Shown piece after piece: positions 1,717 through 59,168 of a stretch of 64,000 nucleotides of DNA (the first letter of the stretch is position 1; every line of letters starts with the position of its first letter). This DNA comes from Octopus vulgaris (taxonomy: Eukaryota). The translations under genes were made by a program, and so were the position numbers. Below the pieces are notes generated by a model. It was not told the origin of the DNA. It ran no database searches and saw only the letters and a list, made by a program, of their open reading frames with translations. Location: assembly GCA_951406725.2 (NCBI GenBank), contig OX597823.1, positions 24,924,001 to 24,988,000 on the forward strand, given 5' to 3'.

Positions 1717-1956
1717 TTTCTCAGATCAATTTTGTGAAAGTAAAAGATGCAACTCTGGATGTATCTGGGAAAAGATTGTGGAAGAAGAAGAGTGTAACAG
1801 CAGATGCTTGTGCAAAAAAGTGTTTGTCTGACAAAAATTGCTTATCATTTGAAATGAAGAAAAAAAATGGAAAATGCTACTTATCAAAAAAAACTGCAGC
1901 TACCACCAATAAAATTAAAACAAGCAAAAGCAGAGATTACTACCAACGAGTGAAGT
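1717..1956 (+). CDS. Exon A1, PAN/apple domain class A (240 nt)
   Basis: ttccag|TT TCT CAG...AAG T|gtaatt; [16 protein letters not shown]...GKCYLSK...DYYQR fits C-x3-C-x5-C-xSF...C-x-L PAN pattern. Confidence 0.9.
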
Positions 1957-58900: not shown

Positions 58901-59168
58901 ACGTGATTTTTGTTTGTTTGTTTTTTTTTTCTAGCTCATCAAGACTTTATTGTCTTTAAAAAAGCTCGCATACCAAAACGTGATCAATTCCAACGGGTTG
59001 ACGATGTAACCATAAAGCAGTGTAAAAAATCTTGCAAGAAACATGCAGAATGTACTTCCTTTCAGTACAAAAAGAATTCTAAAGTCTGTAGTTTGAGTAA
59101 TGTGACTCACTTGACTCTTCAGATTAAACCTGACAAAAAAGGTTCGGATATTTACATTAGTAGCGCAG
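1717..59168 (+). CDS. Partial multi-exon gene encoding a long extracellular-type protein of tandem (PAN-PAN-Sushi/CCP)n repeats; 18 exons in window, about 1290 aa, both ends outside window
   Basis: 18 exons with AG/GT boundaries, all phase 1-1, lengths divisible by 3, no stops within exons or at any of the 17 junction codons; invariant Cys patterns; homologous flanking intron sequence between units. Confidence 0.88.
3140..4115 (-). mobile_element. RTE-clade LINE fragment (APE endonuclease end and linker)
   Basis: Minus: [13 protein letters not shown]...[39 protein letters not shown]; homologous to the 53-56 kb LINE. Confidence 0.75.
4181..4663. repeat. Head-to-head inverted pair of a tRNA-headed element with (AAT)n spacer and decayed hammerhead-like tail
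   Basis: 4181-4401 is the imperfect reverse complement of 4421-4663; TGGCATAGTGG and AGTTCAATTCC boxes; ACAC-CTGATGA-A-GGCTG..CAGCC-AAAAC at 4569-4612. Confidence 0.8.
4932..5340 (+). mobile_element. tRNA-derived SINE (second family) with internal (TA)n
   Basis: TGGCTGTGTAGTAAG and GGTTGAATCCC boxes, CCTTGGGCAAG core; related copy ~46555-46700. Confidence 0.65.
5688..6056 (+). mobile_element. Non-autonomous Helentron/DINE-1-like element
   Basis: 5' hairpin CATCCACCTT..AAGGTGGATG, GTTTGTTTGT microsatellite, GGATTTGGATGAAACTTT, 3' GGTTTGCGCTCTCTGAGTACTCTTGTT. Confidence 0.55.
6125..7685 (-). mobile_element. Degenerate R4/NeSL-type non-LTR retrotransposon (RT, CCHC knuckle, REL endonuclease)
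   Basis: [70 protein letters not shown]. Confidence 0.8.
8231..8461 (+). CDS. Exon B1, PAN/apple domain class B (231 nt)
   Basis: ttccag|CT AAC...CCA G|gtgaat; [27 protein letters not shown]...WNIY. Confidence 0.9.
8823..9190 (-). mobile_element. SINE with RTE-like (GAT)n tail
   Basis: (CAT)n-CGTTTAACGTCCG..CCATGCTAGCATGGG..GGATGCCCTTCCTAACGCCAACCAC; homologs ~13150-13350, ~47945-48345 and ~57888-58052 (opposite orientation). Confidence 0.75.
9240..10195 (-). mobile_element. Penelope-like element 3' end: GIY-YIG endonuclease ORF (9764-10195) plus pseudo-LTR
   Basis: SIYQC...FYIGT...KRISNH...STGLSKLVW...C...CKH motif; hammerhead downstream. Confidence 0.85.
9408..9490 (-). ncRNA. Type I hammerhead ribozyme, intact core (Penelope pLTR)
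   Basis: CTTTC-CTGATGA-GAAGA..TCTTC-GAAAC-ATAT-GTC-GAAAG: stem I, core, stem II, palindromic stem III, GUC cleavage site. Confidence 0.85.
10480..10725 (+). mobile_element. Penelope-like RT C-terminal/linker fragment, inverted relative to adjacent GIY-YIG
   Basis: [18 protein letters not shown]...[19 protein letters not shown] resembles the PLE region preceding GIY-YIG. Confidence 0.55.
10730..11410 (-). mobile_element. RTE LINE 3' fragment
   Basis: Minus: [31 protein letters not shown]; 3' part homologous to ~28530-28780. Confidence 0.7.
11937..12107 (+). CDS. Exon C1, short Sushi/CCP domain (171 nt); not in ORF track frame
   Basis: tttcag|TT AAT...GAA G|gtaaat; [56 protein letters not shown] (C-G-x-P, V-x-Y-x-C, C-x5-W-x6-C). 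Confidence 0.88.
15558..15797 (+). CDS. Exon A2, PAN class A (240 nt)
   Basis: ttccag|TT GCT CGG...AAA T|gtaatt; paralog of A1, [16 protein letters not shown]...CYLSK...DYYQR. Confidence 0.9.
17470..20364 (+). mobile_element. Two tandem partial copies of a second mariner family (17470-19240 split by the nested mariner; 19245-20364)
   Basis: [22 protein letters not shown] / [42 protein letters not shown]; terminal CCTATGAACTTTTCAGCCAACCCTCATA. Confidence 0.8.
17805..19065 (-). mobile_element. Near full-length mariner (cecropia/Hsmar1-like), degenerate, with TIRs and TA target duplication
   Basis: TA|TTAGGTTGTCAAGAAAGTTCTTGCAG ... [43 protein letters not shown]...[19 protein letters not shown]...[12 protein letters not shown]...YFD. 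Confidence 0.92.
20475..20708 (+). CDS. Exon B2, PAN class B (234 nt)
   Basis: ttctag|CC AAA GAT...CCA G|gtcagt; [27 protein letters not shown]. Confidence 0.9.
21536..21706 (+). CDS. Exon C2, short Sushi/CCP (171 nt)
   Basis: tttcag|TT AAC...AAA G|gtaaca; [56 protein letters not shown]. Confidence 0.88.
22803..23039 (+). CDS. Exon A3, PAN class A (237 nt)
   Basis: atccag|AT ACT AAG...CAA C|gtaatt; [26 protein letters not shown]. Confidence 0.9.
23735..24195 (-). mobile_element. Tc1/mariner-superfamily transposase 3' fragment
   Basis: Minus: YVFQ*DSALSH...[15 protein letters not shown]. Confidence 0.75.
24538..24771 (+). CDS. Exon B3, PAN class B (234 nt)
   Basis: ttccag|CC AAT GAA...ACA G|gttagt; [25 protein letters not shown]. 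Confidence 0.9.
26247..26417 (+). CDS. Exon C3, short Sushi/CCP (171 nt)
   Basis: ttccag|AT TAC ACA...AAA G|gtaaca; [56 protein letters not shown]. Confidence 0.88.
26530..27075 (-). mobile_element. RTE LINE reverse transcriptase fragment
   Basis: [33 protein letters not shown]. Confidence 0.85.
29046..29216 (+). CDS. Exon C3b, second consecutive short Sushi/CCP (171 nt)
   Basis: ctccag|CT TAT GCA...AAA G|gtaatg; [56 protein letters not shown]. Confidence 0.88.
31994..32233 (+). CDS. Exon A4, PAN class A (240 nt)
   Basis: ctctag|AT ATT GAA...AAA T|gtaatc; [27 protein letters not shown]. Confidence 0.9.
34790..36195 (-). mobile_element. Degenerate R4/NeSL-type non-LTR fragment
   Basis: [50 protein letters not shown]...IVGALGMIK. 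Confidence 0.7.
36945..37178 (+). CDS. Exon B4, PAN class B (234 nt); missed by ORF track
   Basis: attcag|CC ATT GGG...CCA A|gtcagt; [77 protein letters not shown]. Confidence 0.88.
38545..39200. repeat. Compound (TA)n/(TG)n microsatellite tracts
   Basis: Directly visible; source of spurious YIYI/CVCV ORFs. Confidence 0.95.
40027..40085 (+). ncRNA. Type I hammerhead ribozyme motif, copy 1
   Basis: GGGT-CTGAAGA-stem II (TGTAAAG/CTTTATA, weak base)-GAAAC-CCAGG-GTA-ACCC. Confidence 0.7.
40631..40801 (+). CDS. Exon C4, short Sushi/CCP (171 nt)
   Basis: ttctag|CT TTT TTG...TCA G|gtaaca; [53 protein letters not shown]. Confidence 0.88.
43676..43915 (+). CDS. Exon A5, PAN class A (240 nt)
   Basis: ttctag|CT GCT CAG...AAT T|gtaatt; [27 protein letters not shown]. 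Confidence 0.9.
44048..44281 (+). CDS. Exon B5, PAN class B (234 nt)
   Basis: ctctag|CT GAT GAT...CCA G|gtcagt; [27 protein letters not shown]. Confidence 0.9.
45350..45408 (+). ncRNA. Type I hammerhead ribozyme motif, copy 2 (identical to copy 1), at the tail of a probable Penelope remnant ~44930-45425
   Basis: Same sequence as 40027-40085; preceded by a weakly GIY-YIG-like decayed reading frame. Confidence 0.7.
47439..47615 (+). CDS. Exon C5, short Sushi/CCP (177 nt, shifted acceptor)
   Basis: taacag|CC TCA CCT ACT GCA GAA GTT AAC TGT...GAA G|gtaaca; [53 protein letters not shown]; alternative in-frame start 47454. Confidence 0.82.
48660..48890. repeat. Inverted repeat, arms 48660-48764 and 48783-48890
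   Basis: TTTGGAGTAAAGATTTTTGCCAACATAACATGGCAG... mirrored; same family at 59365-59580. Confidence 0.85.
49195..49434 (+). CDS. Exon A6, PAN class A (240 nt)
   Basis: ctctag|AT ATT CAG...CAA C|gtaatt; [27 protein letters not shown]. Confidence 0.9.
50300..50680 (+). mobile_element. Decayed Penelope-like GIY-YIG C-terminal fragment
   Basis: LKENNIT...[15 protein letters not shown]...EKY...[11 protein letters not shown]. Confidence 0.6.
50760..51110 (+). mobile_element. Mariner transposase HTH fragment
   Basis: [57 protein letters not shown]. Confidence 0.75.
52480..56960 (+). mobile_element. Tc1-like transposon remnant split by the RTE LINE
   Basis: [33 protein letters not shown]| ... |[10 protein letters not shown] resumes after the LINE; left end uncertain. 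Confidence 0.7.
53321..56643 (-). mobile_element. Near full-length degenerate RTE LINE (~3.3 kb) with (GAT)n tail and CCTAT target duplication
   Basis: [68 protein letters not shown] at 53316-53320 and 56644-56648. Confidence 0.9.
57431..57650 (+). repeat. Local direct duplication of ~56535-56758 (LINE 5' end/Tc1 junction)
   Basis: GAATGGACCTGGGACCAAGG...ATCATTTAAGTGAA near-identical in both places. Confidence 0.9.
57606..57887. repeat. Near-perfect palindrome, 138-bp arms, 6-nt loop
   Basis: 57606-57743 is the reverse complement of 57750-57887 with 2 differences seen; loop GAAGGT. Confidence 0.95.
58935..59168 (+). CDS. Exon B6, PAN class B (234 nt)
   Basis: ttctag|CT CAT CAA...GCA G|gtcagt; [32 protein letters not shown]. 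Confidence 0.9.

Follow-up and report, generated by a model that had tools for sequence, protein, structure and literature searches.

A probable 349-exon gene in Octopus vulgaris may encode a giant secreted chain of PAN and Sushi domains

Does a run of repeated single-domain exons in the genome of Octopus vulgaris belong to one gene, and what protein would such a gene encode? The question is raised by a 64,000-nt stretch of contig OX597823.1 (GenBank assembly GCA_951406725.2, here C10), spanning C10:24,924,001-24,988,000 and referred to as the window; positions below are in window or C10 coordinates as labelled. An original prediction made from this window described 18 PAN-A, PAN-B and Sushi (CCP) exons and proposed that they encode a beads-on-a-string secreted or surface protein, in which pairs of PAN domains are separated by Sushi spacers, with lectin, immune, adhesive, egg-coat or salivary roles among the candidates. 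Based on the analyses reported here, we give about even odds to the explanation that the window belongs to one 349-exon gene whose product is a secreted chain of 24,352 residues, comprising 105 PAN-PAN-Sushi(-Sushi) units closed by a GON domain and likely acting as a multivalent binding fibre.

All 18 predicted exons (six PAN-A, six PAN-B and six Sushi) were recovered by tblastn and splice-site inspection between 1717 and 59168 of the window, more than 57 kb, each on the forward strand with AG..GT borders and phase 1/1, and their summed length is exactly 1,290 codons. Domain searches of the kind proposed for checking them agreed, with 12 of the 12 PAN-A and PAN-B exons passing the Pfam PAN_1 cut-off and Sushi matches in all six C exons, five of them above cut-off. 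These are the final six of 105 units, or ~5% of the whole array. In window coordinates, unit 100 consists of PAN-A (1717..1956), PAN-B (8231..8461) and Sushi (11937..12107) exons, and unit 101 of PAN-A (15558..15797), PAN-B (20475..20708) and Sushi (21536..21706). Unit 102 has PAN-A (22803..23039) and PAN-B (24538..24771) followed by a doubled Sushi (26247..26417 and 29046..29216), and unit 103 returns to PAN-A (31994..32233), PAN-B (36945..37178) and Sushi (40631..40801). In unit 104 the PAN-A exon (43676..43915) precedes the shortest intron of the array (132 nt), a PAN-B exon (44048..44281) and a Sushi exon (47439..47615), while unit 105, the last, holds only PAN-A (49195..49434) and PAN-B (58935..59168), the latter predicted to splice to GON exon 1 as in database models P0004 and P0184. 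The order is thus ABC ABC ABCC ABC ABC AB and not the strict A-B-C rhythm first described; the last unit lacks a Sushi exon because the GON exons come 6.9 kb after its PAN-B exon, just beyond the window. Same-class exons of the window match each other at E-values from 1e-16 to 1e-35, and their likeness is not chance, given these values, four invariant cysteines per class and the absence of a stop codon in 343 exons of the array.

With one exon per class as query, C10 yielded matches of A type (106), B type (about 105) and C type (134), exclusively on the forward strand between 23.27 and 24.98 Mb. Profiles built from the window exons and scanned over C10:23,224,001-25,068,000 (1.844 Mb, containing no N) gave 107 A, 107 B and 134 C matches, with no minus-strand match above 20 bits in this region; 346 of the 348 are intact AG..GT phase-1/1 exons of near-fixed length. 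The giant array accounts for 345 of them, 343 being intact exons on the same strand (105 PAN-A, 105 PAN-B and 133 Sushi, with three C-exon donors corrected by 6 nt) across 1.64 Mb with no assembly gap. Its units are mostly ABC (73) or ABCC (27), with two ABCCC and three AB. An extra A at C10:24,195,899 and an extra B at C10:24,207,898 were excluded from the 343; both are partial copies of neighbouring exons without usable splice sites, and both are omitted from O. bimaculoides model P0010, which follows exons 144-202. A shortened and divergent PAN-B exon of 201 nt (C10:24,093,506-24,093,706) is intact and also present in O. bimaculoides model P0006.

Extending the window, as the original prediction had proposed, led to a first and a last exon. 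The giant gene occupies C10:23,362,495-25,003,050 on the forward strand, from a signal-like exon to a GON stop, and the whole window lies inside it at the 3' end. Upstream of the window are the signal-like exon (C10:23,362,495-23,362,549), a second exon of 30 nt (C10:23,363,457-23,363,486) and, from the first PAN-A exon at C10:23,364,742 onwards, 325 array exons; downstream are four GON exons (C10:24,990,060-24,990,331, 24,994,551-24,994,727, 24,997,435-24,997,576 and 25,002,974-25,003,050), all on the forward strand, the first matching PF08685 above cut-off and the fourth carrying the stop, with an AATAAA 42 nt past it. The signal-like exon, the 30-nt exon, GON exons 1-4 and the 3' untranslated region each occur twice in the scanned region, which indicates two genes, one small and one giant, each with one start and one end. 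The upstream regions of the two genes are collinear in promoter, signal-like first exon and 30-nt second exon. Genome-wide, the first-exon region has two matches, as has GON exon 1, to which the Pfam GON model adds only one locus on C1, and an O. bimaculoides model ending in GON also maps twice, once shortly past the 3' end of the window and once far upstream, behind the first A-B-C. Homology searches found no second signal or GON exon inside the array, in agreement with the original prediction, which had seen none between units. One weak resemblance to the signal exon, at C10:24,823,842, was dismissed: it has no hydrophobic frame and is intron sequence, common to sister B introns, that has drifted toward the motif. 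Promoter-region matches inside the array at C10:23,458,217 and 24,000,011 cover a part not shared with the promoter of the small gene and were read as repeats. We consider it likely that the array is one gene, and somewhat more likely than not that one full-length product is made from it; the full-length transcript is deduced from gene structure, since RNA covers only eight of the 348 introns.

Spliced in order, the 349 exons form a frame of 73,059 nt without an internal stop, made up entirely of signal, PAN, Sushi and GON exons and encoding 24,352 residues (2.75 MDa, isoelectric point 8.9) with 1,390 cysteines and 13.9% lysine. The ~1290 residues first estimated hold for the window exons; as a length for the protein they are a ~19-fold underestimate, with the GON end lying outside the window. 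Before the 30-nt exon was added, the chain was computed to carry about 272 N-glycan sequons and contained no segment of transmembrane strength, no 19-residue window exceeding 1.38 on the Kyte-Doolittle scale. Because it shows no hydrophobic membrane window and ends in GON, the product is probably secreted and not membrane-anchored. The beads-on-a-string proposal accordingly stands as regards one long, probably secreted chain spliced across unit borders.

Splicing was examined in four RNA runs from four studies over window positions 20300-37400, covering the eight introns mentioned above, which all lie close to the 3' end. Of the seven junctions within this stretch, six were joined at the predicted GT..AG sites: PAN-B to Sushi of unit 101 (run X2), Sushi of unit 101 to the next PAN-A (X2 and X6), PAN-B of unit 102 to its first Sushi (X2), first to second Sushi (X2 and X6), second Sushi to PAN-A of unit 103 (X4 and X6), and PAN-A to PAN-B of unit 103 (X2 and X3). 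Both C-to-A joints, which cross unit borders, are among them, including the one over the 1,096-nt intron whose length had been correctly given, and single contigs cover B-C-A (X2) and C-C-A (X6). An X3 contig aligned to the second Sushi exon of unit 102 carries 10 mismatches, the number expected for the Sushi exon of unit 103, and is explained as the joint between PAN-B and Sushi of that unit, the latter exon being located beyond the stretch. The RNA origin of the runs follows from the spliced joints their contigs carry. All seven joints seen or inferred link neighbouring exons, and no exon-skipping joint was found among the examined junctions at a contig depth of 2.6-7.3; three non-GT..AG joints lie inside introns and were read as repeat-derived.

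The array appears to be maintained by selection and to have grown in blocks. Stop codons, absent from the 343 exons, would be expected in 38-58% of exons according to simulations of neutral drift (0.05-0.1 substitutions per site). Omega stays under 1 on average (0.71-0.79), with an invariant core, and 32-50% of the weight in a home-made site grid applied to paralogous repeats falls at dN above dS. Models of two other octopuses, O. bimaculoides and O. sinensis, follow the order of the array, O. bimaculoides LOC128248837 to LOC128248841 and LOC106869390/402 being collinear with it, and identity to O. bimaculoides model P0010 is 82% for A (18 exons), 83% for B (18) and 87% for C (21). Every array exon differs from every other, and internal duplicates at 95% identity or above reach no more than 3.7 kb, the longest being an intronic pair (C10:23,377,447-23,381,125 and 23,617,956-23,621,636, 97.8% identity), probably a recent transposon pair. 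Mean unit identity across the array is 58% for A and 46% for B. There is a four-unit super-repeat, visible as a similarity peak at a lag of four units (A 0.657 versus a shuffled maximum of 0.600, B 0.571 versus 0.494) and in the doubled Sushi, whose spacing is four units in 14 of 28 gaps. For as much as ~700 nt ahead of the PAN-A exons, introns can still be aligned across most units, and a TATAAAATGT-like motif lies 5' of the pyrimidine tract of B exons; such conserved intron stretches may be splicing signals or simply reflect shared descent.

What the domains might bind can be approached through their folds and charge. All 105 A and all 105 B exons carry four cysteines, and the modelled PAN fold has the C-x3-C helix motif and two core disulfides, superposing on 4a5t with a Z-score of 11.6 and a root-mean-square deviation of 2.1 over 75 residues. 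An AlphaFold model of two units, a check put forward in the original prediction, gave separate PAN and Sushi beads (pLDDT 79); its pTM of 0.42 means that domain-domain packing is not readable from it. This model matches apple-domain proteins, and the best fold matches overall are apple/PAN proteins, with kallikrein, factor XI, hepatocyte growth factor (HGF), SML-2, MIC4 and leech anti-platelet protein (LAPP) among those found. In a model of PAN-B plus GON (pLDDT 88), the PAN domain matches plasminogen, HGF, SML-2, MIC4 and LAPP at Z-scores of 9-12, and the GON fold had no Foldseek match at E 0.001, the best Z-scores being about 3 and including the procollagen C-propeptide 5k31. Profile searches place PAN-A nearest the HGF N-domain (E 0.002), which binds heparin, and PAN-B nearest MIC4 (E 7e-10), a glycan-binding apple-domain lectin. 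PAN-A is lysine-rich, averaging +7.4 charges per domain, with a basic BBXB motif in 61 of 105 copies, and PAN-B is near neutral with the motif in 12 of 105. The domains are joined by linkers of only a few residues, and the conserved columns include no invariant basic site. In ADAMTS9/GON-1, the GON domain works in the endoplasmic reticulum (ER), where it supports ER-to-Golgi transport (PMC3338439), which suggests that the giant's GON may have a role in exporting so large a cargo.

The second gene in the region is a one-unit paralogue (signal, PAN-A, PAN-B, Sushi and GON) at C10:23,269,851-23,294,200 (forward strand), directly upstream of the giant. It clusters with GON-Abd-1 of Abdopus (R4G2C1), of which it is the orthologue, and with LOC106874924 of O. 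bimaculoides; its A, B and C exons share 81-84% identity with GON-Abd-1, and the free-standing one-unit protein has 465 residues. The public O. vulgaris model of this paralogue (P0180) lacks the PAN-A exon and the true start. The first giant unit shares 31 of 74, 34 of 76 and 23 of 56 residues with GON-Abd-1 in PAN-A, PAN-B and Sushi, respectively. Between giant and paralogue all four GON exons align (64% identity in exon 1) and the signal region is 72% identical in nucleotides over 330 nt (E 3e-40), with the same phase-1 donor. As judged from these homologies of signal exon, modules and GON, the giant belongs to a coleoid PAN/Sushi-GON family. GON-Abd-1, LOC106874924, GON-SepT-2 of Sepioteuthis (R4G7D8) and GON-Sep-2 of cuttlefish (R4FJA6) have the same module order, homologous 5' exons and a four-exon GON; the squid GON-SepT-2 fits signal, PAN, PAN, Sushi, Sushi and GON into 503 residues and the cuttlefish forms are shorter. 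These coleoid GON proteins have 291-503 residues and at most one unit, compared with 105 units and 24,352 residues in the giant, whose last unit is without Sushi.

The architecture had been proposed as undescribed. This holds for the 105-unit form, an extreme variant, of which no description was found; the one-unit form is already in databases (GON-Abd-1, GON-SepT-2), known in sequence and uncharacterised. Neither the architecture nor six locus identifiers appeared in the literature searched, outside whose scope lie most subscription papers (Ruder et al. 2013 among them) and bioRxiv supplements, nor was a function for coleoid GON proteins found there; the GON naming of the family was not found by in-text search of candidate papers. 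Long PAN-Sushi arrays outside Octopus were not found by searches limited to proteins of up to 5,000 residues or reliant on annotation, the best non-octopus matches being Sushi-rich, PAN-rich (Dimorphilus) or short GON proteins, and the ESM Atlas yielded only mollusc PAN/Sushi and PAN/GON clusters (0.88-0.90). Coleoid GON proteins are reportedly attributed by Ruder and co-workers (2013) to posterior venom-gland transcriptomes. The guess of a salivary component, made in the original prediction, gains support for the small paralogue only: a protein group with R4G2C1 and A0A0L8GSV1 is listed with 18 peptides and 43% coverage in posterior salivary gland extracts of O. vulgaris (PMC7693380, Table S1 row 1238).

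Taken together, these results suggest how the giant may have arisen and acted. A gene for a four-domain gland protein would have been duplicated in tandem, and one copy would then have multiplied the A-B-C block inside it about 105-fold, most recently through super-repeats of four units; such internal amplification is workable because every exon is phase 1/1. The 73-kb coding sequence would be translated into the secretory pathway, where the chain would fold as disulfide-locked beads through its 1,390 cysteines, reaching roughly 1 micrometre if extended (an estimate from assumed domain sizes). Lysine-rich PAN-A could bind polysaccharides that are sulfated or acidic, in the way that heparin is bound by the HGF N-domain, near-neutral PAN-B could be a more specific, MIC4-like binder of glycans or proteins, and Sushi modules would space the PAN heads. 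Fast-changing positions outside the conserved core may give each head a slightly different specificity, while GON would close the chain and may assist its exit from the ER. Within a secretion or matrix, the fibre could then serve to cross-link cell surfaces or anionic glycans, and the giant may be a long secreted multivalent cross-linker or agglutinin. More tentatively, and with a little less than even confidence, we propose a single 2.75-MDa, micrometre-long fibre of 210 diverging PAN heads, the product of a salivary-gland gene amplified 105-fold, serving as a one-molecule recognition array with its heads under diversifying selection and possibly being the largest soluble secreted animal protein.

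Several observations weigh against the explanation of one gene for a binding fibre. The signal peptide of the giant was called from visual inspection and from its resemblance to GON-Abd-1 and has no more than moderate hydrophobicity, and internal starts or ends unlike the known ones in sequence would escape homology searches. The PAN-A to PAN-B junction of unit 102 was not seen in the four runs, the depth is low and the few introns covered are 3'-proximal; short contigs cannot show one 73-kb transcript. Skipping would keep the frame at phase 1/1 exons, and minor isoforms would be hidden at such depth. The site-class signal is uncalibrated against gene conversion and may be inflated by it. The match of PAN-A to the HGF N-domain is weak, and the likeness to apple-domain lectins and to the HGF N-domain is one of fold, profile and charge. 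Five identifiers of giant fragments were not found among the supplement rows listed in PMC7693380.

A different use of the same gene would be as a cassette library, with most units skipped to give many short PAN-Sushi-GON isoforms, Dscam-like or resembling fibrinogen-related proteins, and the full chain rare. The common phase permits any skip, the units have diverged with a third to half of site weight at dN above dS, and 1.64 Mb is a long transcription unit, yet none of the observed or inferred joints skips an exon, although depth was low. Moreover, exons clustered by class are typical of mutually exclusive, Dscam-type arrays, whereas here they are interleaved A-B-C, and only two of 345 matches have decayed, both being partial neighbour copies, fewer than a dispensable pool would lead one to expect; we regard this explanation as unlikely. 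It is rather improbable that the chain is a polyprotein, translated in full and then cut into A-B-C units or short oligomers acting like the small salivary paralogue. Homology of the unit to a free-standing protein, the ease with which so lysine-rich a chain could be cut and the higher dose per transcript that more units bring would all suit such processing, but the chain has only three R-X-K/R-R furin-type sites, its short linkers show no invariant basic site, and released units would be without the GON that the small protein carries.

The public annotation presents the locus as several separate genes, with SVEP1-like or ADAMTS-like models of 860-4,280 residues, and three octopus annotations each give several models there, while the RNA test covers only ~4% of the array. 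Against this, the O. vulgaris models, which match array exons at or near 100% and are named SVEP1-like or ADAMTS20-like, are abutting runs of array exons (4-47, 142-155, 156-218, 220-284 and 285-GON) that begin inside domains or intron text and mostly end by reading into introns. Break points differ between species, the tail of one O. bimaculoides model maps to the window intron at 21898-22047 in a frame with stops, and the array lacks the additional signal and GON exons that separate genes would have, so that separate genes seem very improbable. We consider it equally doubtful that the giant itself is a venom or saliva effector on prey, for example through simultaneous binding of collagen or numerous glycans in prey tissue. 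Collagen binding is known from leech PAN proteins, and the shared PAN fold of leech anti-platelet protein and saratin (Z-scores 9.2 and 6.0), the occurrence of the paralogue in the gland proteome and rapid surface change befitting an arms race are in its favour, but giant identifiers were absent from the proteome rows listed, there is no protease or known toxin domain, and a 2.75-MDa chain would presumably diffuse poorly. Repeat arrays are prone to misassembly in general, but an assembly artefact or dead array of pseudo-exons is largely refuted and has a negligible probability, since the exons are non-identical, free of N and stops, collinear with orthologous units in two other species and spliced in RNA.

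Of the named systems that share features with the preferred single giant chain, the ADAMTS9/ADAMTS20/GON-1 proteins have the C-terminal GON in common (PF08685, E 6e-33 in the O. bimaculoides orthologue), but metalloprotease, disintegrin and thrombospondin domains are absent from P0004 (Pfam) and from the exon map. SVEP1/polydom is likewise large, extracellular and rich in Sushi modules, whereas the fragments' Pfam lists and the exon map lack its VWA, EGF and pentraxin domains and the giant's Sushi alternates with PAN pairs. By its predicted domain content the giant is neither an ADAMTS protease nor SVEP1. Factor XI, prekallikrein, the N-domains of HGF and plasminogen, Toxoplasma MIC4, Sarcocystis SML-2 and LAPP share its PAN/apple fold and four core cysteines, and MIC4 also has paired PAN domains; tandem apple proteins have one to six PAN domains compared with 210 in the giant, which has no protease domain and lacks the third disulfide characteristic of classic apple domains. 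In size class and growth by super-repeats, the giant resembles titin, Drosophila Dumpy and PKZILLA-1 and -2, but it has no domain in common with them. Of these, titin is a muscle protein of the cytoplasm, the PKZILLAs are enzymes, and Dumpy is extracellular, about 23,000 residues long and membrane-anchored, in contrast to the giant, which has no predicted membrane anchor. According to bioRxiv 10.1101/2024.01.29.577497, PKZILLA-1, with 45,212 residues and 4.7 MDa, exceeds titin by about 25%, PKZILLA-2 reaches 3.2 MDa, and both were likewise concealed in fragmented gene models.

Mobile elements and distant relatives were also observed. On the minus strand of the window, a broken non-LTR retroelement with endonuclease and reverse-transcriptase pieces lies in the last A-B intron (53682-56556) and an integrase zinc-binding fragment of an LTR (long terminal repeat) retrotransposon at 1-447; a zf-RVT piece is present at 6645-6905. 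Minus-strand open reading frames at 17885-18241 and 9767-10291, which by eye we take to be a mariner transposase piece and a GIY-YIG-type piece, gave no Pfam match at E 0.01. C3, C13, C17 and C18 carry small groups of PAN exons that are remote relatives of A and B, and the Argonauta protein P0041, with four such PAN domains, may correspond to them.

If it is made as one chain, the giant would rank among the largest animal proteins, in the company of titin, Dumpy and the PKZILLAs at the ceiling of protein size, and a chain with about 690 disulfides would have to traverse the secretory pathway. The reconstruction corrects three genome annotations, in which the locus is split into a number of SVEP1-like or ADAMTS-like genes, and provides a natural test of GON domain function outside ADAMTS9. 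Beside its ancestor-like one-unit paralogue, the giant forms a rare before-and-after pair for the passage from a small gland protein to a giant one, and illustrates growth through the duplication of exon blocks and super-repeats.

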